Positions 5,003 through 62,067 of a stretch of DNA of 64,000 bases are shown here, one piece after another; position 1 is the first letter of the stretch; every line of letters starts with the position of its first letter. Where the stretch lies: assembly GCA_963663765.2 (NCBI GenBank), contig CAXXUA010000005.1:800001-864000 (forward strand), written 5' to 3'. The position numbers and the translations under genes were made by a program. Below the pieces are notes generated by a model, which saw only the letters and a program-made list of their open reading frames with translations, searched no databases and was not told the origin of the DNA. This DNA is from Candidatus Poribacteria bacterium. GTDB taxonomy: Bacteria; Poribacteria; WGA-4E; WGA-3G.

Positions 5003-5379
5003 CAAGGTTATTCAGTTTTCAATACTTTTGATAATATTTTGCTATGTCGTTAATTTTATGTGTTGCCATCTTGTCCATGTCTTTAGTCCCGTAGGGACGA
5101 TATGTTTATAGAAAAATGTTATCTATCCCTCTTGAGTTCCGTAGGAACGACATAGAAAAATAAACATATCGTCCCTACCAAATCAACGCCAAATGCGCCA
5201 AATCAACGTTATGAATGCCATTAAGGCATTCCCCGTATGGCATTTGTCGGGACTAAAGAGCGATGTTCATTTTTCAATAATCTAAAACTGATGCAGAAAG
5301 TTCGGTTAGGAAACCAAACCTGGGTATTAACTTTCAGTAAATCTCAATAACAGAAAACTCTTAAAACTAAATAACCCTG
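5003..5379. mobile_element. MITE family B with internal REP hairpins
   Basis: TIR CAAGGTTATTCAGTTTT / AAAACTAAATAACCCTG; 9-bp TSD CTATGATAA at 4994-5002 and 5380-5388. Confidence 0.92.
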
Positions 5380-5538
5380 CTATGATAAAAAAATACTTCA
5401 ACGAAAACCTGAAGTTATTTTTATTTATATAATCCTAACAATATCACAGAGCAATAGTAGATCAACACTATATACTCATTCAACTGAAGTACTCAAAAAT
5501 GGCGAAGGTATTCGTATAAGTATCCTATTCTTTTCTTT

Positions 5539-5676
5539 GGTAGGAGCGACCTCCTGGTCATGACTGTTTTGATACATGCTCTCCATACGGTCGCAACCAG
5601 TAAATCAACGGTATGAATGTCATTATGAAGATTATATTATTAATCTTCATAATGACATTCCCCGGGCCGCTCCTAT
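5539..5676. repeat. Inverted GTAG-type REP pair with an inserted 20-bp perfect hairpin
   Basis: GTAGGAGCGACCTCCTGGTC and its inverted partner ending CCGCTCCTAT; stem 5615-5634 / 5641-5660. Confidence 0.8.
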
Positions 5677-5715
5677 CTGTGTGAGTGTGTAATTAATTCC
5701 ATAATTTACCATAGT

Positions 5716-6468
5716 TTATCTTGTAGAAATCGTTCCGCGCACATAAGAACCCTCATCTGATGCAAGAAAGGTCAGTACTCTTGCGACACCAGCCGGATCA
5801 CCAAGGGATTTCGCAGCGTTTGCAACCGCTGCATCAGGGTCCTTTCCTTCACGTTTAGCAGACTGTGCAATTTGTCCGAGCTTAAGCGGCGTTGCTAAAC
5901 CACCGGGACAGATCGTATGCATACGGATATTGAGTGATGCCACTTGGTTGACAACTGTCATTACCAAACCGTTCACACCCCCTTTGCTTGAAGCATAGGC
6001 GACTGAAGAACTACCACCCCGAACTCCAGCCCCAGATGCAATACAGAGGATAACACCTTCATCACTCTTACCCATAATTGGAACAGCATGTTTTACTGCA
6101 TAGAAAGTGCCTTTCAGATTAACATCAATGACTGTATCAAAGGTTGCAGCATCAAAATCTTCAATACGGACGTTTGCCCCCTGCAAGACACCAGCACAAG
6201 TCACTAATGTATCAATCCGACCATACACATCTGTTATAGTTTGCATCAAAGTAGCGACATCAGATTCGGAGGTAACATCGGTATGGTAGTATTTCGCTTC
6301 TCCACCGTTTTTCAGAATCAGTTTCAACGTTTCTTGCCCATCAAGATCATTGATATCTGCCATGACAACATTTGCGCCTGCATCTGCATAGGTAAGTGCC
6401 GTTGCTGCACCGATACCTGTTGAGGCACCCGTAATCACCGCAACCTTGTCTGTGAGTTGTATATTCAC
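5716..6468 (-). CDS. SDR-family NAD(P)-dependent oxidoreductase
   Basis: TGASTGIG Rossmann motif, YASSK catalytic motif. Confidence 0.95.
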   Translation of the reverse strand: MNIQLTDKVAVITGASTGIGAATALTYADAGANVVMADINDLDGQETLKLILKNGGEAKYYHTDVTSESDVATLMQTITDVYGRIDTLVTCAGVLQGANVRIEDFDAATFDTVIDVNLKGTFYAVKHAVPIMGKSDEGVILCIASGAGVRGGSSSVAYASSKGGVNGLVMTVVNQVASLNIRMHTICPGGLATPLKLGQIAQSAKREGKDPDAAVANAAKSLGDPAGVARVLTFLASDEGSYVRGTISTR

Positions 6469-6557
6469 GTGTTTTCTCCATCATCAAAAGGGAATTGTAA
6501 ACATAAAGAAAAACTCTTCGTATAAACATCCGTTTTATGCAGTCCTACTGGATGCTG

Positions 6558-7397
6558 CTATTTCTCGTTCCAACAACCCTCTGTATACCCATCCCGTGTA
6601 AATAGTTTCTTACGTTCTGGTGTGGTGCGTTCCATCCATTCAGTGGGAATCTCTTGTGTATAAAGATGTGGCGGACCTGCCTGCTTGAAAATGTCAATGC
6701 AGAAGATTCGGTAAGGTTGTGGTGAATCCAAAGGTTTTGCTTCTACGCCGTGAAAGATGCGTGCGTCAATATAAACCATGCTTCCCGGTGGGAGTTCAAG
6801 CCTTTTTTCTTCCAGTTTGCGTCCAACCTTATCATCAAACTCACCTGCTAAAATTCTTTCAGGTGTTACACCTTCAATTGGTTCAACTTTGTGGCTTCCA
6901 GGGATGACCTTTAGATTTCGGTCTCCGCGTTTAAACCCATTAGGATAATAAAGTATCTGGATGTAGTATTTATCACGTTCAGCGAGATTGATTGGGTTTT
7001 CATAACGCCAATGGTGATGGTCAAAATGATATTGTATTGGACCTATACCTCTTGGTGCAAGGTTTAGCGCGGAATGACAGAAATGATACGCATCACGAAT
7101 AGTTGCACTTAGTAGGTTCGTGATGAAAGGATCGTCAATAAGTCGGTCACTATACTCCTTACGTTCGTTCCAAGGACGTATGAAAAAAGCTCGTGTGTTG
7201 TCTGGATTGCGTTCCAATTCTGCAATGTAGTTTCGTGTAGGTTCAAAATGTTGCGTAATCTCTTGAATCAAACCTTCTCGTCCATCGTCCGTGAATACAT
7301 CAGGATAAGCGATATACCCATCGTTATGAAACGAATCAATATCTTCCTGTGAGGGACCTGATAAACGGAAGAGTGAATCAAGATTAGTTTTTTCCAT
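6558..7397 (-). CDS. Phytanoyl-CoA dioxygenase (PhyH)-like 2OG-Fe(II) oxygenase
   Basis: HxD (HFD), LKVIPGSHK, distal His in IFHG. Confidence 0.82.
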   Translation of the reverse strand: MEKTNLDSLFRLSGPSQEDIDSFHNDGYIAYPDVFTDDGREGLIQEITQHFEPTRNYIAELERNPDNTRAFFIRPWNERKEYSDRLIDDPFITNLLSATIRDAYHFCHSALNLAPRGIGPIQYHFDHHHWRYENPINLAERDKYYIQILYYPNGFKRGDRNLKVIPGSHKVEPIEGVTPERILAGEFDDKVGRKLEEKRLELPPGSMVYIDARIFHGVEAKPLDSPQPYRIFCIDIFKQAGPPHLYTQEIPTEWMERTTPERKKLFTRDGYTEGCWNEK

Positions 7398-7522
7398 AGT
7401 GTTATCCTACCATGAGTATTGAATGTGATAGTTTCTGCTAATTTGTTTGACTTTTATTTTTTTTAAGAGTACAATTTAATTATCCATTGATAATGTGCGT
7501 TATGTTAGACTTTTGTACACAC

Positions 7523-7680
7523 TAGGACTTACGCAAAAACGGTAGGCGGTGAATGCCTAAATGGCATTCATACCGTTGATTTGGTGCTTTGTAAGCGCGC
7601 TGGAAACCCATAGAAACGCTGATAATTACATCATTTTCATCATAATATTTGATTAAAACAAGAAAACTGCGTAAGTCCTG
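7523..7680. mobile_element. MITE family D carrying a REP and a micro-insert
   Basis: TIR TAGGACTTACGCA / TGCGTAAGTCCTG; 5-bp TSD CACAC. Confidence 0.92.
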
Positions 7681-7708
7681 CACACAATCTGATAGTAGGA
7701 GAAGTCCA

Positions 7709-7951
7709 TTGAAAAAAATAGATCGCATTACGTTTAATCCAAATGTAATGGGTGGTAAAGCGTGTATACGTGGCATGAGAGTTACCGTTGGAACAGTTGT
7801 TGGTTTGGTTACTTCTGGTTATTCTAATGCTGACATTCTTAAAGCCTACCCTTATTTGGAAGAAGAAGATATTCATCAATCTCTATCTTATGCCGCATGG
7901 CGTGTTGAAGAAATAGAGGTACCACTGAACAACTATGAAGTTGCTGATTGA
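7709..7951 (+). CDS. DUF433 antitoxin-like protein
   Basis: RITFNPNVMGGKACIRGMRVTV...ILKAYPYLEEEDI; TTG start after AGGAG. The longer ORF call runs into the MITE. Confidence 0.9.
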   Translation: MKKIDRITFNPNVMGGKACIRGMRVTVGTVVGLVTSGYSNADILKAYPYLEEEDIHQSLSYAAWRVEEIEVPLNNYEVAD

Positions 7952-8297
7952 TATGAATCTCCCACCCGATTGGGTAAATATATTTCAACAGCACGGATGG
8001 TATGCTATTCATTGGCGAGAAATTGGTGATCCACGTGCATCAGATAGTACTATCATGGCATGCGCGCGTGACAACGGTTATGTTGTCTTCAAAAGGGATC
8101 TTGACTTTGGAACGTTGCTTGCAACTACTAATGCGAAAGGTCCAAGCGTGATTCAGATTCGTGCAAAAGACGTTATTCCTCAGACTATGGGAAATTTGCT
8201 TGTTGAAGTTATTCATCAACACCATTCAACTTTAGATCAGGGTGTTTTGATTACCGTGACCGAAGATCGAGTTCGTTTACGGACTTTGCCTTTATAG
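7935..8297 (+). CDS. DUF5615 PIN-like toxin
   Basis: MKLLIDMNL, ASDSTIM, DLDFGTLL; overlaps the DUF433 gene. Confidence 0.88.
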   Translation: MKLLIDMNLPPDWVNIFQQHGWYAIHWREIGDPRASDSTIMACARDNGYVVFKRDLDFGTLLATTNAKGPSVIQIRAKDVIPQTMGNLLVEVIHQHHSTLDQGVLITVTEDRVRLRTLPL

Positions 8298-8314
8298 ACG
8301 AGGATACATAAGTC

Positions 8315-9787
8315 TTACATTCTGCTATGTCCTTCCGCTTCAAACTTCTCTAACAGTGTTGTCAACCGTTCCACAATTTCTGGACAACTGTCCCAGTGAT
8401 TGTCTGTTTCATAAGGATCGTCGTAAATATGATATAGTTGCCCAGGAGAGTCCGGTTTGGGACCGCCGTCACTGGGTGGAGGCCATCCACCTGATCCTTG
8501 AGTGCCTATAATCAGTTTCCACTCTTCGTGCCGTATAGAAAAGACACCGTTGCTGGAATGGTGTACGATCGCTTCACGTAAAGGATGTTCTGTTTCTTCA
8601 CCTAACAAAGCAGGTAAGATGTTGCAACTATCTTCTCCTGCGTTGTCTGGTACTTGCTTTCCAACAATCGCAGCAGATGTTTCCATCAAATCGGTTAAGC
8701 ACACCAACTCATCCGATGTTGTATTCGGTTGAATTACACCGTTCCATCTTGCAATGAAAGGTTCACGATGTCCACCTTCCCAGATATGTGCCTTATATCC
8801 ACGCCAGTCGCCACAAGATTTGTGATCGTATAGGTTATATGGCATTGGACCTTTTCCACCGCGAACTCGGTCACCAGGTAGGGCTCCGTTATCACTGGTA
8901 ACAAAGATCAATGTATCATCCGTTTTCCCCGTGCGGTCTAAAGCATCCATCACCTCACCGACCATCCAATCAACTAACCAGACGAGATCACCTCTGGGAC
9001 CCGCATCGCTTTTTCCACGTGCAAATTCTGGTACGACCTCTTCCACACACGGTTCATGCGGAGCTGAAGGTGTCATATACAGAAAGAACGGATCATCCGA
9101 ATCTGCTTGTGTTTCAATGTATTCAACAGCCTTCTGTGCGATCATTGGGTCTGCATCCTTATGTTGCCAACTTGGTGCGGTCATTCCACGTCGTCCGGTA
9201 AAGTCTGGCACCCCACGGTATTCACTTGGAATTTCAACAAAAGCGTCATTTTCAATAAAGCCATACGGGGGTTGGCATGTCGGGCAGCCTGCTGTTCCGT
9301 AGAAATAGTCAAACCCAATATCGTTTGGTCCGCCTGTTATTGGTGCGTGAAAATCAATATGTTCTTCTAACTCGCGTTTCGCATTGCCCCATGGCAGCGG
9401 TGCATCAAAATCGTAATCGTAGTCCGGCACCGTCGAAAACCCCATCCCTAAGTGCCATTTACCGACACAGGCAGTATTGTATCCCGCATCTTTCAACATA
9501 CTGGCAACTGTCAAACGTTCAGGCTCAATCAAAGCGGGTTCATACCCATATAGCACACCTCGCTTAAGACGACTCCGCCAGCAATATCTGCCTGTTAGGA
9601 CACCGTATCGGGTGGGTGTGCAAACAGCAGATGGAGAATGCGCATCAGTAAAGCGAATTCCTTCCTGTGCAAGTTGATCCATATTTGGGGTAGGAATTTT
9701 TGAATCTGGGTTATAACAACCGACATCCCCGTACCCCATGTCATCAGCCATAATGAAAATAATATTTGGTTGTTTTTGAAAATCCAT
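8315..9787 (-). CDS. Arylsulfatase (formylglycine-dependent)
   Basis: PNIIFIMADDMGYGD, CTPTR sulfatase motif, GKWHLG. Confidence 0.95.
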   Translation of the reverse strand: MDFQKQPNIIFIMADDMGYGDVGCYNPDSKIPTPNMDQLAQEGIRFTDAHSPSAVCTPTRYGVLTGRYCWRSRLKRGVLYGYEPALIEPERLTVASMLKDAGYNTACVGKWHLGMGFSTVPDYDYDFDAPLPWGNAKRELEEHIDFHAPITGGPNDIGFDYFYGTAGCPTCQPPYGFIENDAFVEIPSEYRGVPDFTGRRGMTAPSWQHKDADPMIAQKAVEYIETQADSDDPFFLYMTPSAPHEPCVEEVVPEFARGKSDAGPRGDLVWLVDWMVGEVMDALDRTGKTDDTLIFVTSDNGALPGDRVRGGKGPMPYNLYDHKSCGDWRGYKAHIWEGGHREPFIARWNGVIQPNTTSDELVCLTDLMETSAAIVGKQVPDNAGEDSCNILPALLGEETEHPLREAIVHHSSNGVFSIRHEEWKLIIGTQGSGGWPPPSDGGPKPDSPGQLYHIYDDPYETDNHWDSCPEIVERLTTLLEKFEAEGHSRM

Positions 9788-9821
9788 ATTACTCCAATAG
9801 AGAACAGTAGGTATAACGCAT

Positions 9822-11042: not shown

Positions 11043-11091
11043 ATTTATTTCTGTAGTTTACCTTTAATTCTGCTAACAGCGTATCTCATAT

Positions 11092-12210: not shown

Positions 12211-12456
12211 TCTTACAATTCCTCTATAGCGTATCTCATAAATGCAATTTTGTCCAAATTCATCAAATCACGCGTCTGGTAAATCGGGGTTTCTAACCTC
12301 GATTGTTTGAGCCAAAACCTGCAAATCGGGGTTAGAAACACCTCCAACAACTCTAATAGTAAACGTTTCAACAATAGGTCACATCACTAAATTGACACCC
12401 GGGGAATGCTATAGAGAATTCAGACCTTTGATTAATGGGTAAAACTATGCAAAATC

Positions 12457-12685
12457 CATAGGCGTCAATTTAAGCGACAAATCCCGCCACACATTGTAGG
12501 GCGGGGTCTCTGTGCCCCGCCATGTATTCAAAAAGGAAACAATGGGCGGGCACAGAGACCCGGGGAATGCCTAAATGGCATTCATACCGTTGATTTCTTG
12601 ATTTGGTCCCTACAATCAAGATGACAACGTTGGTTGTGCTAAACTGAACAATACCTTGAAATAAATCCCTAAATTGACGCCTATG
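12457..12685. mobile_element. MITE family C with internal inverted REP pair
   Basis: TIR CATAGGCGTCAATTTA / TAAATTGACGCCTATG; internal GTAGGGCGGGGTCTCTGTGCCC pair. Confidence 0.85.
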
Positions 12686-12704
12686 GGTATAACTATGCAA
12701 AACC

Positions 12705-13080
12705 TATAGGTGTCAACTTAAGGATATTAACCTCTTGTGGGAGGGGTTTTCAACCCCGACAGAAGCCAAACGCGCTTCTGACGTTGATTTGGATTTATTA
12801 GGGCATTTCCGCTCAAATCGGGGTTAAAAACCCCTCCCACAAGAGAAAATGCAAACAATATTTTCTTAAGTTGACACCTATAGGGTATAACTATGCAAAA
12901 CCCATAGGTGTCAACTTAAGGATATTAACCTCTTGTGGGAGGGGTTTTCAACCCCGTCAGAAGCCAAACGCGCTTCTGACGTTGATTTGGATTTATTAGG
13001 GCATTTCCGCTCAAATCGGGGTTAAAAACCCCTCCCACAAGAGAAAATGCAAACAATATTTTCTTAAGTTGACACCTATG
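12705..13080. mobile_element. Two tandem near-identical MITE family C copies (12705-12882, 12903-13080)
   Basis: 198-bp period; TIR ATAGGTGTCAACTTAAG; internal inverted pair CTTGTGGGAGGGGTTTT / AAAACCCCTCCCACAAG. Confidence 0.92.
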
Positions 13081-13192
13081 GGTATAACTATGCAAAACCC
13101 AACCTACGAAAAGTCTTTCCTACATCAAACTATTACACATATCTCTTAATAATAGAGCCAGTAAGAATGAAAAAGATAGCCAAATTACGTGG

Positions 13193-14257: not shown

Positions 14258-14395
14258 CTCCTCGTTACAGATATATTTTATTGATTTTATCCTTTTTCAT
14301 TTTCATAGTCAAGTTAATTTATGGTGCGGGGTGTGTAATGTTTTGGCACAAACTGCTCATTCTCCATGGTAGGGCGGGGTCTCTGTGCCCCGCCG

Positions 14396-15071
14396 CATAG
14401 GTGTCAACTTAGCGATTCATATTATTGTTGGAGGAAAATCTTGAAATCACGATTTTCTCACTCAAGGTAGACGTGCTTTGTAAGCGCACCCCCCCAACTG
14501 CACTCCCTCGCACTCACCCGCACTCACCTGCAGGCGTGCTTTGTAAGCGCACCAAGCACTCACCCGCACTCACCCACACTCCCCTGCAGGCGTGCTTTGT
14601 AAGCGCACCCCGAACTCACCCGCACTCAACCGCAGGCGTGCTTTGTAAGCGCACCCCTCAACTGCAGGCGTGCTTTGTAAGCGCACCCAACACTCACCCG
14701 CACTCAACTGCAGACGTGCTTTGTAAGCGCACCCCTCAACTGCAGGCGTGCTTTGTAAGCGCACCCAACACTCACCCGCACTCAACTGCAGACGTGCTTT
14801 GTAAGCGCACTCCTCAACTGCAGGCGTGCTTTGTAAGCGCGCCTGCACTCACCCGCACCCCCCAACTGCAGGCGTGCTTTGTAAGCGCACCTACCAACTG
14901 CACTCCCCTGCAGGCGTGCTTTGTAAGCGCGCCAAGCACTCACCCGCACTCCCCTGCAGGCGTGCTTTGTAAGCGCACCGTTGCCAATCCTGTGTTTATC
15001 GGCGCACTTACAAAGCACACCTACCGGGATGGGGTATTTAGCACTTGACTTTTTCTTAAGTTGACACCTAA
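14396..15071. mobile_element. MITE family C carrying an amplified REP array
   Basis: TIR CATAGGTGTCAACTTA / TAAGTTGACACCTA. Confidence 0.85.
14467..15024. repeat. Array of 12 direct REP-like hairpins plus one inverted copy
   Basis: G(T/C)AG(G/A)CGTGCTTTGTAAGCGCACC repeats with C/A-rich linkers; terminal inverted GGCGCACTTACAAAGCACACCTAC. Confidence 0.95.
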
Positions 15072-15175
15072 GGGGTCTCTGTGTCCCGTCACAACTGATT
15101 AAATAAGAGATTACGGGAACAGCACCCATAGGTGTTGTCAACATAAGGAAATATTGTTAATATCAACCATACTCT

Positions 15176-15605
15176 TCAGTCCCGACAAATGCCATACGCG
15201 CATTTGGCGTTGATTTGGTAGCGACGATATGTTTATAGAAAACGAGTTCACACGCCTTTTTAGTCCCGACAAATGCCATACGCGCATTTGGCGTTGATTT
15301 GGTAGGGACGATATGTTTATTCTTCTATGCCGTTCCTACGGAACTCAAGAGGGGTAGATAACATTTTTCTATAAACATATCGTCCCTACGGGACTAAATG
15401 GTTTTCTTGCTAAGTATTTGTTATATGTTCCCATTGACGATCTTCTACTTAAACAGATGACGACTGGGTTCTTCAGCATTGAAATTTTATTTTATGCTAA
15501 AATTAATTGCCGAAAGAACCACTAAAGACATGGACAAGATGGCAACGCATAAAATTAACGGCATAGCAAAAAATCATCAAAAATGCCTAAAACTAAATAA
15601 TCCTA
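15176..15605. mobile_element. Partial MITE family B / REP cluster with two micro-inserts and a nested family F element
   Basis: AGTCCCG...TAGGGACGATATGTTTAT repeats; one family B terminus AAAACTAAATAATCCT near 15590-15605. Confidence 0.75.
15399..15521. mobile_element. MITE family F
   Basis: TGG...CCA ends, CTAAA on both sides; inverted homolog at 43769-44089. Confidence 0.75.
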
Positions 15606-16323: not shown

Positions 16324-17084
16324 AAAAAAGGCTTTTTACAACTGGTGAATTGATATTCGGTGGCATTGCCTGCCTATTAATCCTATTGATTGGGGCGGGT
16401 GCCTGCTATTATTGGTATAAACATAGTATTGCTCCTTACGAAAAAGAAGCAGCCCAAACAGCCAAACCTGTCAGCGAATGGGAAAAATCACAGAAAGTGA
16501 ATACCAACAACGTGACGGAAGAAGTAAATACCACACCTGCGGAAAAACATAACGCAACAACAGAGAAACCTATAACCGAAACAATAGATGTTTCCGATAA
16601 TGTATTGCAAAACGCTAACACAAAAAATGTTGAAGCTGAGAACTATGTTGAAGCAGGGACTTCACCAACAGAAACTGTAGAAGATGTACCCGTCTCTCCG
16701 CACGGATTTGGTCCCTATCCGAAAATACCAAAGGGTGCGCCAATTGCAAAATTTGACGACAGTGACGATATAGACATGGAATTATTGATTCGTGTTGCTG
16801 TCAAGGCTTGGAACGAAGGTGAAAGATTCGAAAGTGCTTTCACTGATGGGAATACAGGTAGGGTCTACCTAAATTATCCTGGAATAGTTTATGTCGAATA
16901 TTCAGAAAAGAGAGATACCGCAACTGGTGAAGTAAAATTAGTTGTTAGTAATGTTACTGGACCTGCTTCATTAAGTCAGAGTGTTATCAGTTCAGTTTTC
17001 GATGGTAACACACCTGCAGGATACACAACTATAGATATTAAAGAATCTGGGATAGACCCTTATGAGTATTTAGAATTACCTTAA
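16320..17084 (+). CDS. Hypothetical membrane-anchored protein
   Basis: N-terminal TM helix, T/E/N-rich linker, VSPHGFGPYPKIP and GIDPYEYL motifs; ATGA overlap with the upstream gene. Confidence 0.7.
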   Translation: MKKRLFTTGELIFGGIACLLILLIGAGACYYWYKHSIAPYEKEAAQTAKPVSEWEKSQKVNTNNVTEEVNTTPAEKHNATTEKPITETIDVSDNVLQNANTKNVEAENYVEAGTSPTETVEDVPVSPHGFGPYPKIPKGAPIAKFDDSDDIDMELLIRVAVKAWNEGERFESAFTDGNTGRVYLNYPGIVYVEYSEKRDTATGEVKLVVSNVTGPASLSQSVISSVFDGNTPAGYTTIDIKESGIDPYEYLELP

Positions 17085-17174
17085 TTTAACGAGTTGTGCT
17101 AAATAACTATACGTTAATCATTGTTTCACATAAGCATGGCGTTTTGCAGGTGTCCTTCATAGTTTGAAACTATC

Positions 17175-17285
17175 TTTAGTCCCGTAGGGACGATATGTTT
17201 ATAGAAAAACGTCATAGTACATCCTCTTTAGTCCCGACAAATGCCATACGCGCATTTGGCGTTGATTTGGTAGGGACGATATGTG
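17175..17285. repeat. Two direct REP units, the second carrying a 34-nt micro-insert
   Basis: CTTTAGTCCCGTAGGGACGATATG versus CTTTAGTCCCG[insert 17237-17270]TAGGGACGATATG. Confidence 0.88.
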
Positions 17286-17329
17286 TGCATTATAAACCTA
17301 ATATATGTAAAAACTTTGAAAACAATGGG

Positions 17330-18601
17330 TTAACTGGCACAAGTCGTTAATTTACCTTCTGACGTATCAACAAGTGAATTTAGAATGGGCAGCAACGAAT
17401 TCATTGTTGGCACATCGCGGAAGGTAAAGCCGAATTGTGAGAAATAGTCTGACTCCGACAACGCATCCGCGATAATCTGTTGCTTCTCCAACTCCTTTGA
17501 TACACCGAGAATAAGGGGTGTGTCGGTATGTTCCGCAAGTGTATTGAGACGGGCAAGTAGATGTCCTTGGTGCCACGGATGGAACAGCTCAATTGCGATT
17601 TTCACACCACTGCTATGGATCAGTTGATAATCTGGGAAGCAGTAGAAATCACCGGGTAAAGGTAGAAACTGACTTCCAGGGTGTATCTGCCATGTATCGG
17701 TTTTGTTGCGGAGCATCTCTTGAAAGAGATGAATGTCTTCAGGAATGTAGGCGAGGAATTGTTGCGATATGGGTTTGATACCGCACGAATCATCAAGAAT
17801 CAACCGACAACTCTGTTTATTGCGAAACTGAATTTCCGCGGTGAGTTCCCATTTCGGTTGATGTAGTATAGCGACAAAAAAATTGGCTAAGTTCATGCCA
17901 TATCGTTTGGTTTTGTAAAAGAGGTTTAGCGGTCCGTCTACAGTAATGTGGAATAGATCCTCGTTTGTGGTTTTCTCCTTCCGAATAGTGGAGAGGAGTT
18001 GGTTAAATCTAAGATACTTGAACAACTGCCGGAGTTCTGCTGTCATGGATTCAGTGAGAACTAATGTGAGTGTGTTGCAATGTAGGAGCAATCCTTGCAC
18101 CTGCGCAGTGTTGTAGCGGTGGAGTAGATGTTCGGCAGATATTCTTCTGAAAGACAGCACGGGTTGGCAATTCGGCAGATCCGCATAGAGTTTATCACCC
18201 AACCCGTTCCCCTCTAATACCCCTTCGTTTCCAACAATCTGCGAAACTTTCTGCTGATAGTCGGCATAATCCTGAAACCTTTCTTGTGAAAGCATGCGGC
18301 TTGTTTCTGTAAACAGTTTATGCCGAAATGCAATAAGTTCTTCATTAGGAGCAGTGTCAAACTCAGTGCGGTCTAATAGCAGTTTTTCAAAGCCACGTTT
18401 GATGATAAGTTGCCCTGATGTCGTATCAATGACATGTTTACTCGCTTCTAATATCGTTGCCCTCGGCTTGTCCTGTGATTCTTCAAACACGGATATTAGC
18501 TGGTCAGCAATTGCCAGTAATTTGCTGTCTGTAGGATCAACAAATTGGGGAAAAATCTTCCCTTTTTGAATTCTGTAGCGGAGTAGGTCTTTGGTAAGCA
18601 T
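17330..18601 (-). CDS. DUF790 (Bax1-like) nuclease
   Basis: MLTKDLL start, LLHRYNTAQVQGLL, VDGPLNLFYKTKRYG, C-terminal PDY...IEL nuclease-like motif. Confidence 0.82.
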   Translation of the reverse strand: MLTKDLLRYRIQKGKIFPQFVDPTDSKLLAIADQLISVFEESQDKPRATILEASKHVIDTTSGQLIIKRGFEKLLLDRTEFDTAPNEELIAFRHKLFTETSRMLSQERFQDYADYQQKVSQIVGNEGVLEGNGLGDKLYADLPNCQPVLSFRRISAEHLLHRYNTAQVQGLLLHCNTLTLVLTESMTAELRQLFKYLRFNQLLSTIRKEKTTNEDLFHITVDGPLNLFYKTKRYGMNLANFFVAILHQPKWELTAEIQFRNKQSCRLILDDSCGIKPISQQFLAYIPEDIHLFQEMLRNKTDTWQIHPGSQFLPLPGDFYCFPDYQLIHSSGVKIAIELFHPWHQGHLLARLNTLAEHTDTPLILGVSKELEKQQIIADALSESDYFSQFGFTFRDVPTMNSLLPILNSLVDTSEGKLTTCAS

Positions 18602-28506: not shown

Positions 28507-28845
28507 TAGGGTTATTCAGTTTTAGGTATTTTTGATAAGTATTTACTATAACGTTAATATTATATGTTGCCATCTTGTCCAGTTCTTTAGTCCCGTAGGG
28601 ACGATATGTTTATAGATAAATGTTATCTACCCCTCTTGAGTTCCGTAGGAACGGCATAGAAGAATAAACATATCGTCCCTACCAAATCAACGCCAAATGC
28701 GCGTGTGGCATTTGGCAGGACTAAAGACCGATGTTCATGTTTCAATTTTCTAAAATTGATGTGTAAGGTGCAGTTAGGACCTCATTTGGGTATTAACTTT
28801 CAGTAAATCTCAATAACAGAAAACTTTTAAAACTGAATAACCCTG
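28507..28845. mobile_element. MITE family B
   Basis: Family B TIRs; TSD CACTTGTAT / TACTTGTAT. Confidence 0.9.
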
Positions 28846-32481: not shown

Positions 32482-32910
32482 CAGGGTTATTTAGTTTTAG
32501 GTTTTTTTGATGATTATTTGCTATAACGTTAATTTTATATGTTGCCATCTTGTCCATGTCTTTAGTCCCGCCAAATGCCATACGGGGAATGCCTTAATGG
32601 CATTCATACCGTTGATTTGGCGCATTTGGCGTTGATTTGGTAGGGACGATATGTTTATAGAAAATGTTTTCAACCCCAATTGAGTTCCGTAGGAACGACA
32701 TAGAAGAATAAACATATCGTCCCTACGGGACTAAAGAACTGTGGAGGGTATTCGTTTTCTATAAACATATCGTCCCTACGGGACTAAAGAGCGATGTTCA
32801 TGTTTCAATAACCTAAAACTGATGCAGAAAGTTCGGTTAGGAAATCGAACCTTGGTATTAACTTTTAGTAAATCTCAATAACAGAAAACTCTTAAAACTA
32901 AATAACCCTG
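32482..32910. mobile_element. MITE family B with doubly nested micro-inserts
   Basis: Both TIRs present, no TSD; abuts a lone family A terminus at 32914-32930. Confidence 0.88.
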
Positions 32911-35763: not shown

Positions 35764-36278
35764 CAGAGTTATTCAGTTTTAAGAGTTTTCTGTTCTTGAG
35801 ATTTACTGAAAGTTAATACCCAGGTTCGGTTTCCTAACCGAATTTTACGCATCATTTTAATTTATTGAAAACTGAATATCGCTCTTTAGTCCCGACAAAT
35901 GCCATACGGGGAATGCCTTAATGGCATTCATACCGTTGATTTGGCGCATTTGGCGTTGATTTGGTAGGGACGATATGTGTATAGATAACGAATACCCTCC
36001 ACAGTTCTTTAGTCCCGACAAATGCCACACGCGCATTTGGCGTTGATTTGGTAGGGACGATATGTGTATAGATAACGAATACCCTCCACAGTTCTTTAGT
36101 CCCGTAGGGACGATATGTTTATTCTTCTATGTCGTTCCTACGGAACTCAATTGGGGTGGAAAACATTTTCTATAAACATATCGTTCCTACGGAACTAAAG
36201 ACATGGACACGAGGGTATTACAAAATATTAACGGTATAACAAAATACTATCAAAAATATTGAAAACTGAATAACCTTG
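35764..36278. mobile_element. MITE family B, inverted, with an internally duplicated REP unit
   Basis: TIRs present; TGTATAACC at 35747-35755 and 36279-36287. Confidence 0.88.
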
Positions 36279-43768: not shown

Positions 43769-44089
43769 TGGCTCATTCGGCAATTAATTTTAGCATAAAA
43801 TAAAAGTCCAATGCTGAAGAACCCAGTAGTCATATGTTTAAGTAGTAGATCGTCAATGGAAACATATCAGGACTTACGCACCCAACGGTAGGCGGTGAAT
43901 GCCTAAATGGCATTCATACCCGGGGAATGCCAAAAGGCATTCATACCGTTGATTTCTTGATTTGGTGCTTTGTAAGCGCGCCGGAAACCTAAAAAATGCT
44001 GAAAATTACATCATTTTCGTCTTAATTCTTGATTGGATCATGAAAACTGCGTAAGTCCTGCATATAATAAATACTAAGCAAGAAAACAA
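43769..44089. mobile_element. MITE family F containing a family D element (43868-44060)
   Basis: Outer CTAAA duplication; inner TSD CATAT. Confidence 0.85.
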
Positions 44090-48932: not shown

Positions 48933-48945
48933 ATGTTTGATTTGG

Positions 48946-50140: not shown

Positions 50141-51267
50141 TTACTCTATTTCCTTAGGATTATTATACAATTCCCAGTAACCTGAGCCTTTCTCAACATT
50201 TTTTGCAGATCCTTGTTTTGCAAGAGCTTGCAATGCGCTATTGAAAAGCTGATCTATAGCCGATTTTGCATCCAGTCCACCCCGAACTTGATGAATTTTA
50301 GTTACTTCATCAGAACTTACGCAAAAACGGTAGGCGTGCTTTGTAAGCGCGCTGGAAACCTATAAAAATACTGATTAATTACATCATTTTCAACATAATT
50401 CTTGATTAAATCAAGAAAACTGCGTAAGTCCTGTTCATTTATAATATCTTGTTTTTTAGTTTTCCCTTTATCTCCGAATAATTCTATAATAAGAGGTCTT
50501 GCCATCTTACCTGTAAGATACTTGCCTGCGTAATCGTACTTGTAACTTGACTGTTTATCAGAAATTACATCCATATTTGGGGTAGGTGTTGGTTCCACTG
50601 GTGGTGCATATAAGTTTTGCAGAAATGTTATCACGTGTTCTGGGGTAGGACGCTTGCCACATAGTTCTGATGTCTTTTCAACAATGATTTTCAGTAGAAG
50701 TTCATTCTGTTCTTTTACTAAAAGGTTCCATGCTTCTGGTACCCCTTTTTGAATCTGTCTTTCATAAACCACGTTCTGATAGTCTTCAGCAATGACTTTC
50801 ACCATCTTTCCTGTCTTTACACTTTCATAATTCAGGTACCTGTTTAGGCGTTCGGCGATTTCATCGCTTTTTCCACCGATAAGATCCAATTCGTGTACCA
50901 GCCGGTCTTTGTAATTCCCGGTACCTGCGGGGTAAAAAAAACGCCATTTCTGCCCATCAGTAAGAACAACAATCGGAACCCCTTCAATAAAAGCATATTC
51001 AAACAGCTGCTTTTCTGCTCCTTGAATTTTTCCCACCTGCTTAACTTCAATAAAAATGATGGGCTTTTCTGGTGGATGACAAAGTGCAAAGTCAACTCTC
51101 CTTCCCTCAACTGAGTATTCAGAGATGATAATTTGAGGACTGAACATTGGCCATTGCAATACCTGAAGCAGTCTATTCACAATATGATTAGAAACAGCAG
51201 ACTCATCTTTATATGCGTTTTTTTCTAAATTATTACGAATATCATCAATATGTTCTATAAGTGTCAT
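50141..51267 (-). pseudogene. HsdR-N-terminal-like PD-(D/E)XK protein interrupted by a MITE near its 3' end
   Basis: EYSVEGRRVDFAL, FIEVK, QLFEYA, LTDG; removing 50311-50438 restores an open frame to TAA at 50141. Confidence 0.8.
50311..50433. mobile_element. MITE family D
   Basis: TIR CAGAACTTACGCA / TGCGTAAGTCCTG; TSD TTCAT. Confidence 0.92.
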
Positions 51268-51697: not shown

Positions 51698-51755
51698 CAA
51701 ACCGACCAAGAACACACATTGCAAGACTACAACGATTAATGTACTGCGTTTGGCA

Positions 51756-53963: not shown

Positions 53964-53987
53964 GTTTGTTGTGTATCTCCGAATATG

Positions 53988-56900: not shown

Positions 56901-57806
56901 AAGTTTATTCCAGAAATATGATCTATTGTCGGGATTACACTCATCTATTATTAGCACAACTGAGAAAGAGTTATCGTCTCGGAGAATTTCATTCAGTAAA
57001 ACACTATCTAAGAATTGAGAGGCGGTACAGTAAACAACAAGTGGAGATAAATCATCAACCTTCGTTGCTTCTAAGACAAGTTTAGTTTTTCCGATGCCAG
57101 GTTCACCCAACACCCGCAGGTGAACTGTGTCGTTGTTTCGTCTTAATTCATCTTGGATTTCTAATATCTGATCGTTCTGTGATTCTCCTGAGACAAATGA
57201 GAGCTGCATAGTTGCATCTTCAGACCAACTCTGATGGGTTTGGAAAAATCCTCTATCATTTCCATTGACCCACAATGCTAATGATGGAAACATCTCAAGG
57301 AAGGTTATAAGAGTATTCTGACTCCACACTTCAACCTTCGGAGTTTGATAACCACATTGCTCTAAATACCCTTTAATTTTATTCAAAATTTCTCTATATT
57401 CGCTATCAACAAGATCGATTCCGGTGCAGACTAATACGTAGGTTCCTCCCGATTCATCTTCAAGACATGCTCGAATGCCATCTTTAAGATTTTGTTCATT
57501 AGCCTCATTTTCGCTGCCGAAGAGTTCATCCTTAATATTTGGCTTTGTTTTCCCAGACTTTATCTGGTAACTGGTTTTTCCTTGCTGAATTAATCCGCTT
57601 CCTATTGGCATCTGAGTATCACTAACAGATGCATCGATACCACCGTCTCGGACATTAACACGGTGTGAGATATTAATCTTGCTTAGTTCTATTCCGAGTT
57701 TGCGCGCTTCTGCCCAAAGCAGCTTCCGGCAAAATTCGACAGATGTTTTTTGATCAAGTTGGTTTAGATGATGATTGTTTACGGTAAAAATAGTATCAAT
57801 ATTCAT
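53988..57806 (-). CDS. Nuclease-STAND NTPase-helical repeat protein (Avs/NLR-like candidate)
   Basis: DGGIDA...YQIK, GEPGIGKT, VLIIDE, GSPR, long helical C-terminus. Confidence 0.7.
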   Translation of the reverse strand: MNIDTIFTVNNHHLNQLDQKTSVEFCRKLLWAEARKLGIELSKINISHRVNVRDGGIDASVSDTQMPIGSGLIQQGKTSYQIKSGKTKPNIKDELFGSENEANEQNLKDGIRACLEDESGGTYVLVCTGIDLVDSEYREILNKIKGYLEQCGYQTPKVEVWSQNTLITFLEMFPSLALWVNGNDRGFFQTHQSWSEDATMQLSFVSGESQNDQILEIQDELRRNNDTVHLRVLGEPGIGKTKLVLEATKVDDLSPLVVYCTASQFLDSVLLNEILRDDNSFSVVLIIDECNPDNRSYFWNKLKHRGSKIKLITIYNDYEEKSGDINYYDAPPLDNEQICSIVQSYTNISNADANRWAELCSGSPRVAHVIGENLVNHPEDLLKPPGTVDIWERYIVAGDEPNREQTEQRRLVLQYLSLFKRFGFERTVASEAEAIAKKVIEADNRITLDKFHSIIHQLRDRKILQGEFTLYITPKALHIKLWTQWWEIRRLTFNLETFTQDLEPELVEYFYDMFVYAAESEAALNVVKKLLGPNGPFQDNKYLKTRMGSRFFLALSEADPESALKCLMRTIGTWDKETLLKFTDGRRLVIWALEKIAIWQKLFPDAARLLLALGEAENERISNNASGVFADLFSLGPGGVAPTEASPIERLPILKEAFESGSKERQTLAIKACNKGLISDHFSRTSGAEYQGLRGIPKLWEPKTYGEWWDAYSQIWQLLSEQLEHLPEGERKEAVGILLGRAGSLGRIPALGDMIVNTVETITEKKYASGKQIIETISRILFHDDSYIDNKGLPSVVRQRFEEIRDGLIGSDYHSQMQRYVGMDLLEDELLEHEEGVNPTQLYLETLAKQSIDNPDLLKSELSWLVTTDAKNGNRFGNELGQQDEELSLLPTLLDAQRSAVDNASTYFLGGYFHAIFDKDMKQWEAQLDNLRKDTTLNTIVPSLTHYSGLTDQAGLRILNLAKSGIINIYDFEIFIFRNAITSLSENVFKTWIEFLLKKSDRSAVEIALKLFYNYYISQKPEPTLPDETTYCLLSHSELYNDSDNYHYSTMTDFYWTEIAKTFLSLNPQKALELAKLMLVSFGNDKTMFDSFSQSCTFLTEATKQHPAEVWNYVSKYLGKYDNFSRTISIGNWLREADLSDKEEDKEKGALTLIPREYIWEWINKDVENRAWYLASEFVPKTLLIEEWNDSLARDLLVRYGDREDVRNTLISNYSSEAFWGPASLHYEEKVQKLVDIQNNDNDDRVNRWINEFVPFLKEQIEHSKIREERMF

Positions 57807-57832
57807 TGTTTTCTCCTACAATCTTTTAAAGT

Positions 57833-59854
57833 TCAATCAGCCTCACTGCCAGCAGGGGCAAATTCAACTGCAGGATTACTCTCAACTCGCTTACTTGGCA
57901 GACTTAACACCGCTTCCACAATGAGTGCTACCAACATTGCAATAAGAAAAATACGCCAGAGTTCATTCGCTAACGAGGAGGTATCTCCAACCTCAACATC
58001 TATACGTCGGTAGGACAAATCACCAAAGAGGGCATCAACCTTCTCAACGGGTGCTGCGTTAGCAATATCTTCCGCATGACTTCGATTTACTGCCACCCAA
58101 TACGCTTCATCTTGATAGACACCAGCGTGCAATCCACGTTGTGAAAGCGATGCAGCATTTTCTTTGGGGGCAACCACTTCCCATTGTTCTCGGTCTGCAA
58201 GTGCATCAGAAGCAGCATCGCGTTGGGAGGCATCTGTCAATGCACGACATCCTTCCGCTAAAGCACGTTGCAACATCACATAAAACACCACCCCATCACG
58301 TTCAAAAGACGAAAACTGAGCGGTTGGAAGGGTGCTACAAAAATACACTGCCCCAGAGTCAGTATTGACACGGGTTAACAGCGGTGAATCGTCACCAAAC
58401 CGTGCTAATGTTGTTCCTATGCTATCGTGAGAACGATATTGGTAGGTGCGTAGGTCGTTTAACGGCAAAGGATCACCACTGTCTGTATGTGATAGTAAGT
58501 CTGTATCACTACGCCACCATGAAACTTCAGAACTTTGCTCATCCTCAGGTTTTTGCCAGTCACTCCAACGTGTTTCAAACATCTGTCCACCAGCATTCTG
58601 ATGTGGCGGAAAGAAGATAACAACACGGCCACTGTTGACAAAACTCTGTATCTGTTCAGCAACCAATTCATTGGGTAATGCTGCCTGCCAAATCAATAAG
58701 CCTGAGTTTTCCCAATCAATCTCACCGATGCGTTTCGTTTGATACACCTCTGCCTGATGTTGAAGTCGTGCGTCTGGTGGAATAGTAAGTGCTCGCCGAA
58801 AGGTCTCCCCTGTTCTGGCATCATCAGTGACAATTACTGTTTTTCGCACTGGTGGTTCAGAAAAGACAAAGAAAAACCGGTTGTCCAATGGGTTTGCATC
58901 CCCCGGTAACCCGACTGAACCCCATCCAGATGTTAACGAACCATCAATAGGAATACTGTGTCCCTGTATAGATCCACCAAGCAGGTCAAGTTCTATTTCC
59001 ACGACTGATCGAACATTATTTACTTCAAACTCAATCGGTACTTTTCGCGTTGCAGTATTATTACCATCACTGCGAACCATGACATCAAGTATCAATTCCC
59101 CCTCATTTGCTCTGTGCCAACGCTGCACGTTTTCCACCCTAACCGATAAGTTGTTAGAAGATGGTGCTGAGTATGCAAGTAGGAAATGATGTACATTGTC
59201 TAATTGGGCAAATTCCTCACGTATGGCATCCCAACGTCCACTGCCCACAGTCCAATCGTTTTCGTGCAGGTCGGAACAGAGCCATATTTCAGCGCGTCCA
59301 GAATTGTTTGCCTTTAGATAAGTTAATGCTGACTCATACATGCCCGGTATATTGGCACTCGTGGCACTTGCTTCGGTCATAGGAAGGCTTAGTAATGCTT
59401 GAGGAGAGTCTACTTCTTGTAGTTCTCCGGTCGCACTATCAATTAGGATCAACTGTGTCCCATAATCCCCTTGTTCCAGTAAGTCTACCAACCTTTTAAG
59501 TGCCGTGGATCTTTTTGACTCTCCTGCCTGTAGGTCTTGTGTCTCCATACTTGCAGATCGGTCAAGGAGCACCATCGTAATATCAGGTTTTGCAAATCCT
59601 ATACTCCCTAACCATCCACCAGAAAGGGGTCTACTGATGGCAAAAATAAGTGCTGCAATGGCAAGGACACGCATCAACAAAATGAGTATATGACGTATGC
59701 GTGCCATACCCTTGCTCATGCGTTTCGCGGTCATGAGAAACATCATTGCTGCCCACGCCACAGTACGGTGTCGTTGTTGATTGATAAGATGAATGATAAC
59801 TGGTAGCAACACTAAAGGAAGTGCTATTAATGTAAGTGGTTGTAAGAAATTCAT
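57833..59854 (-). CDS. BatA-domain vWA membrane protein
   Basis: LPVIIHLIN, WAAMMFL, AISRP, DRSASM. Confidence 0.88.
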   Translation of the reverse strand: MNFLQPLTLIALPLVLLPVIIHLINQQRHRTVAWAAMMFLMTAKRMSKGMARIRHILILLMRVLAIAALIFAISRPLSGGWLGSIGFAKPDITMVLLDRSASMETQDLQAGESKRSTALKRLVDLLEQGDYGTQLILIDSATGELQEVDSPQALLSLPMTEASATSANIPGMYESALTYLKANNSGRAEIWLCSDLHENDWTVGSGRWDAIREEFAQLDNVHHFLLAYSAPSSNNLSVRVENVQRWHRANEGELILDVMVRSDGNNTATRKVPIEFEVNNVRSVVEIELDLLGGSIQGHSIPIDGSLTSGWGSVGLPGDANPLDNRFFFVFSEPPVRKTVIVTDDARTGETFRRALTIPPDARLQHQAEVYQTKRIGEIDWENSGLLIWQAALPNELVAEQIQSFVNSGRVVIFFPPHQNAGGQMFETRWSDWQKPEDEQSSEVSWWRSDTDLLSHTDSGDPLPLNDLRTYQYRSHDSIGTTLARFGDDSPLLTRVNTDSGAVYFCSTLPTAQFSSFERDGVVFYVMLQRALAEGCRALTDASQRDAASDALADREQWEVVAPKENAASLSQRGLHAGVYQDEAYWVAVNRSHAEDIANAAPVEKVDALFGDLSYRRIDVEVGDTSSLANELWRIFLIAMLVALIVEAVLSLPSKRVESNPAVEFAPAGSEAD

Positions 59855-59938
59855 AGTTTTTTGGCTTTTAATTATCGGTTGTCAACTATCAGTTCTCAGT
59901 CTTTTTTGAAAGCCGATAGCCGATTGCTGATTGTCATA

Positions 59939-60844
59939 TTACGCTCGTTTCTTGGGTGTTCGTCCTAAAAGAAATTTTGCTAAAACATCCCCATAGTCAT
60001 CATTGATACAGATGCGATGATAATCAATTTCGGTGTCTTGGATTACCTCATTCATGCTTTCAAGGTAAACATCAAGTGCACGTCGGTACTGCTCACCGAT
60101 AATGATAGGATCCGCTAAGATAGCTTCACCACCCTCCATGTCAACAAAACGTACCGGACGATCAAAATCAAAATCAAGTTCGTTTTGCTCCATAAGATGG
60201 AACACTGCCACATCATGCTTACGGAAACGCAAATGCTCAAAACAGTTTCTGACGACTTCAGGATCAATGAACAGATCAGATATGATAATGATGAGAGCTC
60301 TTTGCGGGACACGTTCAGCAGCTTCGTGAAGAGCTTCTGCGAACCCTGTTTCTCCGGACGGTTCTACCGTTCCGAGTTCATCAAGGACAGCACTGAGATG
60401 TGTGGCACTTCGTTTTGGTGGGATTTCTTTGTGGAATTGTGTCCCCGCGCAGTAGAGTCCAACAGCATCGCCTTGAAGCGCAGCAATATAGGCTAAAGTG
60501 CCACCAATACGGCGTGCATAATCAAGTTTGCTCATACCGTTGTACGCATACCCCATGGAACCGCTGGTATCAACCATTAAGCACATACGAAGGTTTGTAT
60601 CTGCTTCAAACTCTTTGATATAGTAGCGGTCATTACGGGCATAAGCACGCCAGTCCAGACGGCGAGTATCATCACCCGGTACATATTTGCGGTACTCAGC
60701 AAACTCAAGACTTGAACCCCGAATCGGACTGCGATGTTTGCCAGATACATTCCCTATCATAGGTAGACGGGCATGCAGTTGCAACGTAGACAGACGTTCA
60801 AGCACTTTCTGGTCGAGATAATCCCGTTTGAGTTGTAGTGCCAT
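59939..60844 (-). CDS. DUF58 vWA-like protein
   Basis: GSSLEFAEYRKYVPGDDTRRLDW, DTSGSM. Confidence 0.93.
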   Translation of the reverse strand: MALQLKRDYLDQKVLERLSTLQLHARLPMIGNVSGKHRSPIRGSSLEFAEYRKYVPGDDTRRLDWRAYARNDRYYIKEFEADTNLRMCLMVDTSGSMGYAYNGMSKLDYARRIGGTLAYIAALQGDAVGLYCAGTQFHKEIPPKRSATHLSAVLDELGTVEPSGETGFAEALHEAAERVPQRALIIIISDLFIDPEVVRNCFEHLRFRKHDVAVFHLMEQNELDFDFDRPVRFVDMEGGEAILADPIIIGEQYRRALDVYLESMNEVIQDTEIDYHRICINDDYGDVLAKFLLGRTPKKRA

Positions 60845-60846
60845 AA

Positions 60847-61866
60847 CTAACCTTGCTCAGACAATTCTTCAACGAGACGTTCAACGATGTCCTGACTGGT
60901 AATGTTTTCTGATTCAGCGGCAAAGGATGTAATAACACGGTGGGATAACACCGGATTTGCAACAGCAGCAACATCTTCCAGTCGTGCCATATAACTACCG
61001 CTGAGTGCTGCGCGGGCTTTAGCACCTAAAATCAGGTATTGAACAGCTCGCGGACCAGCACCCCAAGCAACAAGCGGTTTTAGCCAGTCAGGGGACGCAT
61101 CCGTTTTTGGACGCGTACTACGTGACAAGTCAACGGCAAATTCATAGATATGTTCGGGGACAGGAACTCGTCTAACAAGATTTTGGAAGGCTATTACACG
61201 TTCACCTGTTAGCACGTGTTCTAATGTCGGTAGCGACATACCTGTGGTTGTTCTGGCAATTTCAATCTCTTCAGACCTTGATGGATAGTCCACCTCAATC
61301 CTGAACATAAAGCGGTCTAACTGAGCTTCAGGCAACGGGTACGTGCCTTCCTGCTCAATGGGATTTTGTGTTGCTAACACAAAGAATGGTGGTTCTAACT
61401 GGTAGGTTCTGCCGATGACAGTAATCTTATACTCCTGCATCGCTTCAAGCATTGCTGCTTGCGTTTTGGAAGGTGCACGGTTAATCTCGTCTGCAAGAAT
61501 TAGGTTCGCAAATAGAGGTCCCTTTGCAAACTCAAACTCGCGTCGTCCCCCTGGTGCCTCTTGAAGAATGTCAGTACCAGTGATGTCCATCGGCATAAGG
61601 TCAGGTGTGAATTGGATACGACTAAACTCCAAAGCCATTGTCTCTGCAAACTCTTTTACCAAAAGTGTTTTCGCCAATCCAGGAACACCCATTAGCAAGG
61701 CATGTCCTTGGGCAAAAAGACAAATTGACAAGTTTTCAATGACCTGTTCCTGACCGATAATTATCTTAGCAAGTGTTTGTTTTAGTTGAGCATAGACATC
61801 CCGCAACTCATCTATCGCGGTAACGTCATCAGCATCCATTTGGTCAATATGTTGTGTGTCTTGCAT
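60847..61866 (-). CDS. moxR: MoxR-family AAA+ ATPase
   Basis: GVPGLAKT, RIQFTPDLMP, DEINRA, ATQNPIEQEGTYPLPEAQLDRF. Confidence 0.96.
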   Translation of the reverse strand: MQDTQHIDQMDADDVTAIDELRDVYAQLKQTLAKIIIGQEQVIENLSICLFAQGHALLMGVPGLAKTLLVKEFAETMALEFSRIQFTPDLMPMDITGTDILQEAPGGRREFEFAKGPLFANLILADEINRAPSKTQAAMLEAMQEYKITVIGRTYQLEPPFFVLATQNPIEQEGTYPLPEAQLDRFMFRIEVDYPSRSEEIEIARTTTGMSLPTLEHVLTGERVIAFQNLVRRVPVPEHIYEFAVDLSRSTRPKTDASPDWLKPLVAWGAGPRAVQYLILGAKARAALSGSYMARLEDVAAVANPVLSHRVITSFAAESENITSQDIVERLVEELSEQG

Positions 61867-61909
61867 TTTATTCCTTTATGTTTAAGTGTTATTAGTTTAG
61901 TTTTCAATA

Positions 61910-62067
61910 CAGGACTTACGCACCAAACGGTAGGCGGGGAATGCCTAAATGGCATTCATACCGTTGATTTGGCGCTTTGTAAGCGCGCTGGAAACCGAAA
62001 AAATGCTGAAAATTACACCATTTTCGTCATAATTCTTCATCAAATCATGAAAACTGCGTAAGTCCTG
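61910..62067. mobile_element. MITE family D with micro-insert
   Basis: Perfect TIR CAGGACTTACGCA; no clean TSD. Confidence 0.88.

Follow-up and report, generated by a model that had tools for sequence, protein, structure and literature searches.

The stretch analysed here (the window, 64,000 nucleotides; G000:C5:800001-864000) belongs to the genome of a sponge symbiont, a Candidatus Poribacteria bacterium and not a cyanobacterium (G000; 6.35 Mb in 15 contigs, ~41% G+C, 97.8% complete) and contains copies of two related hairpin units, X of 36 nt and Y of 34 nt, which lie inside other palindromes and inside miniature inverted-repeat transposable elements (MITEs). Genome-wide we counted 369 X blocks and 91 uninterrupted Y units, and GTTGATTTGG, the sequence with which both units end, occurs 454 times. 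Within the window the tail CGTTGATTTGG, allowing at most one mismatch, is matched 16 times compared to 1.44 expected, a number reached by 0 of 100 shuffles. We consider it probable that X and Y are two subfamilies of very small, non-autonomous, genus-specific mobile modules, which are inserted 3' of the dinucleotide CG by a factor acting in trans. Five other genomes of the same genus are referred to below as G001, G003, G010, G018 and G024.

Anatomy and distribution of the units

X consists of GG(G/T)GAATGCC, a loop of 4–5 nt, GGCATTC, ATACC and GTTGATTTGG, while Y consists of (A/C)CAAATGC, CATACGC, GCATTTG, GC and GTTGATTTGG. The layout in common is an imperfect hairpin with the tail GTTGATTT(GG) directly at the base of an extended imperfect stem; the two bases after GTTGATTT are GG in 270 of 358 blocks and are host-dependent elsewhere. 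Each unit has a single hairpin, with no second-end hairpin such as would correspond to the left and right ends of an IS200/IS605 insertion sequence (IS), and neither has terminal inverted repeats or a target duplication of the MITE type. On its reverse strand X carries GTAT directly 5' of the hairpin, one letter off the tag GTAG of repetitive extragenic palindromes (REPs); Y has no GTAG tag beside its hairpin, and GTATG lies within its loop.

Folded as DNA, X reaches −9.6 kcal/mol (z = −4.65), Y −8.0 kcal/mol (z = −2.61) and the combined Y+X −18.7 kcal/mol (z = −4.07). The stems covary. In a set of 121 Y copies (41 distinct), picked by loop and tail at fixed spacing alone, pairing was found in 80–93% of copies at eight of the nine stem positions (0.56 at position 2) compared to 26–32% with a shifted partner, and the compensatory pair types include AT/GC, TA/AT and GC/AT. 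Paired changes also occur in X stems (GAATACC/GGTATTC, GAATGCT/AGCATTC), and one Y variant has the compensated stem CAGAAGC/GCTTCTG. A conserved covarying hairpin would fit an RNA structure as well as a DNA one, and an earlier note on this DNA had left room for an RNA route or a recombinase. The genome, 97.8% complete, yielded no match to the reverse transcriptase family RVT_1 (PF00078) and none to the IS110 DEDD recombinase family (PF01548), so that neither alternative found a candidate enzyme here, and a search of Rfam matched no family in the window. Spread via an RNA intermediate copied back by reverse transcriptase is thus extremely improbable.

On the minus strand at 5178-5247 a Y occupies the palindrome GTCCCG^TAGGGAC (host A; ^ marks the junction) and carries an X (5198-5233) in its loop after CATACG. 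A Y with X in its loop is also present at 32571-32640 (X at 32585-32620; plus strand), and its twin at 35895-35964 (X at 35909-35944; plus strand). Y stands alone in host A at 15185-15218 (plus strand), and further Y-only copies lie at 15269-15302, 17237-17270 and 36018-36051 (plus strand) and at 28682-28715 (minus strand). In MITE-B (7525-7678, plus strand; 118 nt without X, inverted ends GGACTTACGCA and TGCGTAAGTCC) an X of sequence GGTGAATGCC-TAAAT-GGCATTC-ATACC-GTTGATTTGG follows GGTAGGCG at 7549-7584 (plus strand), while a second copy of MITE-B holds an X at 61937-61972 (plus strand). A two-head, two-tail X block, head(TAAAT)-CG-head(AAAA)-GTTGATTT-CTTGATTT-GG, lies in MITE-B sequence at 43895-43965 (plus strand). 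An X with a doubled tail (GTTGATTT CTTGATTT GG) follows GAGACCCG in host D (12563-12606, plus strand), and a degenerate X lies near 12401.

All of the X and Y copies listed by the earlier note were found at its coordinates or within 1–2 nt of them, but that list was incomplete, having overlooked two copies of the Y variant with the compensated stem, one of which follows CAACCCCG in a host C MITE (12759-12792, plus strand) while the other lies at 12957-12990. The same note's report that filled and empty sites coexist in the window holds. A composite MITE of 266 nt (17081-17346, plus strand) contains both an empty host-A site (17179-17191, plus strand; GTCCCG^TAGGGAC, GTCCCGTAGGGAC) and the Y-filled site at 17237, and seven further empty host-A sites start at 5086, 28590, 36099 and 51498 (plus strand) and at 15394, 32731 and 32784 (minus strand). 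The MITE-B target GTAGGCG^TGCTTTG (GTAGGCGTGCTTTG) is empty at 50330-50343 (plus strand).

The exact X pattern is present in 135 copies in G000 and was found in 21 of 24 other genus genomes, with 0 to 53 copies each (53 in G001, 15 in G010 and 21 in G024, none in G003 or G018); it was absent from all 16 genomes that represented three other families of the order. In a search of one genome per species (185,579 species) an exact X 20-mer was matched in at least 91 stretches; among the 80 matches listed, 79 were titled Poribacteria and one 'uncultured bacterium'. This 20-mer is dispersed over the chromosomes of G001 (81 copies) and G024 (89 copies), and had no match in viral contigs. Since X occurs in more than 20 independent assemblies, an assembly artefact is ruled out. 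A 120-kb island of G024 (C1:4350001-4470000) contains 74 X heads, which occupy almost all of its intergenic gaps, and 35 of the 89 exact 20-mer copies; it is rich in WD40, TPR and defence-type genes (Type ISP restriction, AAA_21/DUF4435, methylase-HNH, SNase).

Only 197 of 839 relaxed tail matches in G000 fall within open reading frames (ORFs) of at least 150 aa, which make up ~0.81 of the genome, and X and Y are therefore mostly intergenic. This position, together with exact conservation across species whose coding DNA differs by 20–30%, would be expected of functional sites (protein-binding hairpins or RNA elements) whose sequence is preserved through selection and not through recent copying. 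However, copy number ranges from 0 to > 100 among species of a single genus, the units sit inside selfish repeats and form nested and tandem arrays, and they bear no fixed relation to genes. We regard selected function as a very improbable explanation of their abundance.

Junctions, hosts and nesting

CG lies directly before 314 of the 369 X blocks and 87 of the 91 Y units, compared to a background of 3.9% of dinucleotides, and a further 33 X blocks directly follow the tail of another unit. The earlier note had recognised several unrelated hairpin hosts, and the range is wider still: in this genome X is preceded by 24 distinct 12-nt contexts (Y by five), with dozens more in other genomes. Clean pairs of filled and empty sites define the junctions GTCCCG^TAGGGAC for Y, CAACCCCG^ATTT for the Y variant, GGTAGGCG^TGC for X, and CCATACG^CGC for X in the Y loop; those in other genomes include GGGAACTCCG^ATTCCC, GAGTTCCG^TAGGAAC and AATCCG^CG. 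Across other Poribacteria, 87 X copies follow CG in REP loops, host-A-like palindromes, AATCCG repeats and unique DNA. The main host varies by species, being AATCCG^CG repeats in G001 and the REPs GTAGG-CG^ and GGGAACTCCG^ in G024. The two units also differ in preference within G000, where X never occurs alone in host A and Y never occurs in MITE-B.

Target duplication at the clean pairs is 0 or 1 nt, the ambiguity arising because units start and end with G, so that a 36-nt insert after CG cannot be told from a 35-nt insert with duplication of one G. The rule of insertion after CG without target duplication, as proposed in the earlier note, thus describes the clean sites correctly as to position, while a 1-nt G duplication is equally compatible with them.

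Pairing between tail and target was considered as a general rule and rejected, a complement of at least 6 nt being present only in ACGGTAGG hosts. In MITE-B, TACCGTT of X is complementary to AACGGTA of the host, and at 7533-7584 in the window TACCGTTGATTTG of X can pair with CAAAAACGGTA, which lies in MITE-B a short way 5' of the insertion, giving a long composite hairpin of −19.2 kcal/mol.

Nesting of X in the Y loop, already recorded in the earlier note, is frequent; of the 120 filled host-A sites, 61 hold inserts longer than Y alone, mostly Y + X. The same cannot be said of the claim that X also inserts cleanly into X. The junction there, CATACC-CG-GGGAATGCC, contains one C too many, and the next tail is CTTGATTT rather than GTTGATTT, so that the apparent X-in-X layout is head-CG-head-tail-tail. 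Later tails are CTTGATTT rather than GTTGATTT in 187 of 212 cases, and a Y variant is also found after the internal CG of such blocks. Head and tail numbers are coupled, with at least two tails in 54 of 57 two-head blocks and a single tail in 190 of 293 one-head blocks. Tandem 36-nt arrays reach up to 10 units and mix loop variants; they are therefore not simple slippage of one unit, and are better explained by repeated use of a regenerated site.

Passive carriage and independent gain or loss

That some copies spread passively inside MITEs, as the earlier note had supposed, is evident from contigs of a related strain. One contig (~98% identical to the window, with 41 differing letters in 2948) joins position 7517 to 7681 and another joins 17080 to 17347. 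MITE-B with its X and the 266-nt composite with its Y are thus present or absent as whole units, both being bridged by strain contigs, and since two MITEs are wholly missing from a strain ~98% identical, MITE transposition has been recent in the species.

The question is whether this carriage is sufficient, i.e. whether a few ancient insertions could have been multiplied with MITEs and REPs and shuffled by gene conversion, unequal crossing-over and slippage, with no mobility specific to X and Y. MITE-B allows the two to be compared, as its 125 oriented copies (41 filled, 84 empty) share one fixed insertion site. On the MITE-B tree the filled state requires 32 changes, compared to 31–37 in the ten shuffles listed, and a filled copy has a filled nearest neighbour in a proportion of 0.40 where 0.32 would be expected (p = 0.15). 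Both states are present in 12 of the 18 clusters formed at 3% divergence; seven filled copies have a 100%-identical empty partner, and 19 of the 41 have an empty partner at no more than one mismatch. Host A comprises 508 empty sites, 59 with Y and 61 with longer inserts. Here 17 of 39 tight clusters are mixed, eight of them containing all three states, and 15 of the 61 Y+X sites have a Y-only partner with no more than two mismatches in 140 nt.

Mixed states in MITE-B and host A, the 24 unrelated contexts and the species-specific main hosts together argue for gain or loss of X and Y as units, independently of the host MITE. Homology-driven processes would not produce a common CG junction, and the coupled head and tail numbers also speak against such shuffling. 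Filled and empty copies might in addition become intermixed through gene conversion among MITEs that are nearly identical; such conversion can add scatter at most, since unrelated hosts with a common CG junction are beyond its reach. Wholly passive multiplication is in our judgement an unlikely account of these data, even though the whole-MITE differences between strains at two window sites, the strong clustering of filled host-A sites, and the resemblance of tandem head (27 nt) and tail (8 nt) expansions to slippage are what it would predict.

Several observations nevertheless weigh against independent movement of the units. Both of the window copies that differ between strains (in the MITEs at 7525-7678 and 17081-17346) do so together with an entire MITE, and no X-only polymorphism between strains was seen in the short-read Logan contigs, which break at repeats; among genus relatives, coding DNA is ~70–82% identical and intergenic repeats are not alignable. 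In host A, the nearest neighbour of a filled site is filled in a proportion of 0.56, compared to 0.19 ± 0.04 expected, and conversion of the kind just described may contribute to the scatter seen in MITE-B. Insertions in hosts D, E and F are not clean relative to the commonest empty forms: host D matches only a rare empty variant, and in hosts E and F 1–3 nt are replaced. Nor are the head-CG-head and tail-C-tail junctions clean, as both carry an extra C. Genome-wide, no long element ending in the motif was found and no gene recurs beside X or Y. Finally, a scan of 41 of the 63 ORFs in the G024 island identified no transposase or site-specific recombinase family, though it did pick up one methylase-HNH and one SNase nuclease domain protein.

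We nonetheless favour insertion of X and Y in trans. The earlier note had proposed a minimal unit moved in this way by an HUH enzyme, and the first part agrees with units that are discrete, oriented, nested, and gained or lost independently of their MITE in mixed MITE-B and host-A clusters; the enzyme named is considered below and fares less well. A putative trans-acting factor, presumably a dedicated enzyme, would recognise the folded single strand of X or Y and insert the module, always the same way round, immediately 3' of a CG that mostly belongs to CCG or GCG. The target CG would lie in the loop or arm of another palindrome, such as a GTAG-type REP, a MITE-internal hairpin, an AATCCGCG tandem repeat or the loop of Y, and target duplication would be absent or at most 1 nt. 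Reuse of the regenerated site could then generate tandem 36-nt arrays and nested blocks, while resident copies would be further multiplied passively by their host MITEs. We infer that the direction of change was insertion rather than precise excision.

Candidate enzymes and comparison with known systems

One proposal for such a factor, that of the earlier note, is an HUH Y1 enzyme, either an IS200/IS605 TnpA or a REP-associated tyrosine transposase (RAYT), which would mobilise X and Y as single-strand substrates resembling a right end with one hairpin. Much about the units is suggestive of this: a hairpin followed by a 3' tail of 9–10 nt, oriented insertion by a short fixed word in hairpin loops with no target duplication, the fact that hosts A, B and E are GTAG-type REPs, and the GTAT of the X reverse strand. 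Enzymes of both kinds are present in G000. A PF01797 profile search identified three to four copies of a 1.75-kb IS200/IS605 element with tnpA and tnpB (G000:C3:287718, C5:550867, C5:688634 and C5:353059), near-identical and one of them split by ~1.3 kb, and there is one RAYT gene (G000:C4:621598-622077; NF047646 122.5 bits against a cut-off of 80, PF01797 41.9 bits). There are ~27 tnpB-like ORFs genome-wide.

However, the ends of the 1.75-kb element are unrelated to X and Y, and what borders the RAYT gene on either side is not X or Y but long arrays of another REP, GTAGGAGGGAACTCCGATTCCCGA (G000:C4:620500-623500). This REP is itself a target of X in other genomes. Phyletic distribution is no more favourable. 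RAYT scores above the cut-off in 25 of 40 genus genomes and is missing from G001, G010, G024 and four others; the three named have no PF01797 or NF047646 match despite their X copies, whereas G003 and G018 have Y1 genes and no X. X and Y moreover possess one hairpin per unit rather than two ends. A preference for the lagging-strand template is known for IS608, while the top strand of X and Y lies more often on the negative-skew strand (274 vs 202), a bias unlike that of IS608, although the skew is weak and the copies are not independent. The link to HUH enzymes drawn in the earlier note thus finds no support in the IS ends, in the REPs beside RAYT or in the X-rich genomes G001 and G024, which lack Y1 and RAYT genes. 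Its case is weakened rather than closed, because passive amplification by MITEs could keep X intact after loss of the enzyme; all the same we doubt that a Y1 enzyme is responsible.

The earlier note had also suggested looking for a long, enzyme-encoding element that ends in the motif, and none was found in the genome. The sole head that is parted from its tail was considered as a possible parent element and rejected, as only an ordinary MITE, with its 9-bp duplication, lies between the two. On the minus strand of G000:C4 near 101,200, a composite MITE of ~360 nt is inserted in X, with the 9-bp duplication ATACCGTTG and inverted ends GGGTGTGTAAAGTTTTTGCAC. A 2.1-kb element was likewise rejected as a source of X, having neither X nor Y at its ends; its four copies (~93% identity; G000:C3:608699-610830, one on C2 and two on C13) encode a 279-aa protein. 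One apparent family of X-adjacent genes in a nucleotide comparison of ORFs proved to be a false ORF through REP arrays. Genes in the densest X clusters are ordinary, encoding a PBP4-like peptidase, a WD40 protein, a dehydrogenase and a deacetylase as judged by eye from their translations.

An origin from CRISPR repeats was rejected too, since X and Y bear no relation to any of the three types of repeat found beside the four cas1 genes, and X arrays have no spacers. The four cas1 loci (G000:C4:124500-144499, C4:1015000-1034999, C6:199500-219499 and C6:402000-421999) have arrays of ~100, 56, 60 and 114 repeats, and one cas1 lies in a 604-aa open frame.

It is possible, and we propose it tentatively, that an undescribed DNA-joining activity, distinct from PF01797/RAYT Y1 enzymes, reverse transcriptases and IS110, moves these 35-nt modules of hairpin and tail into the CG sites of folded repeats, and that the Poribacteria units form, with the small dispersed repeats (SDRs) of cyanobacteria, a single class of minimal mobile DNA that is widespread but has been overlooked. 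If units of 34–36 nt do relocate on their own, they would approach the minimum size for mobile DNA. Such units can be studied more cleanly in this genus than in the SDRs, given its exact CG junction, hundreds of filled and empty sister sites, and stem covariation. The ~40 species genomes, with 0 to > 100 copies, make the responsible gene searchable by phyletic profiling. The units also bear on the restructuring of repeat-rich symbiont genomes, and call for caution in assembling these.

Among known systems, MITEs resemble X and Y in being small, non-autonomous and abundant, and are their main carriers here, but differ in their terminal inverted repeats and target duplication. The ends of IS200/IS605 elements and of their derivatives without genes, the palindrome-associated elements, combine a hairpin with a short 3' tail, and insert in a fixed orientation by a short word with no target duplication. 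X and Y are like an IS200/IS605 right end in each of these respects, with insertion 3' of the word; they are unlike IS200/IS605 in having one hairpin instead of two ends, a target word of just CG, no relation to the resident IS ends and no phyletic link to Y1 genes. REPs and REPINs, which are short palindromes repeated outside genes, are believed to be mobilised in trans by RAYT in single-stranded form (PMC3116915, PMC3733652). X and Y are likewise short, palindromic and extragenic, and G000 also has a REP/RAYT system whose REPs are X targets, but unlike REPs in such systems X and Y do not lie beside the RAYT gene, insert into other repeats at CG, and occur in RAYT-free genomes. X and Y would therefore appear to behave like products of structure-guided single-strand insertion, yet fail membership of the IS200/IS605-derivative, REP/RAYT, MITE, IS110 and CRISPR classes.

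To our knowledge the cyanobacterial SDRs are the only described precedent, and we know of no mechanism established for them since 2008; a literature search found no published account of such repeats in Poribacteria. Elhai and colleagues reportedly described SDR1–8 of Nostoc punctiforme and relatives in 2008 as repeats of 21–27 nt, compared to 34–36 nt for X and Y, and are said to have proposed an RNA intermediate copied back by reverse transcriptase, an enzyme not found in this Poribacteria genome. X and Y also differ from SDRs in having a common 8-nt tail that itself multiplies. They also belong to another phylum, whereas SDR-like repeats are reported only from Nostocaceae (PMC5861425). The likeness is nevertheless close in description: SDRs are very small dispersed hairpin units nested in themselves, in minitransposons and in short tandem repeats, and X and Y are small hairpin units nested in each other, in MITEs and in tandem short repeats. 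SDR5 sits precisely between the third and fourth base of GCGATCGC, i.e. after GCG (PMC4390886), as X and Y follow CG. The closest described kin of X and Y would thus be the cyanobacterial SDRs, likened by description rather than by sequence, and we read X and Y as probably a further variant of this poorly understood kind of repeat, in a new phylum.

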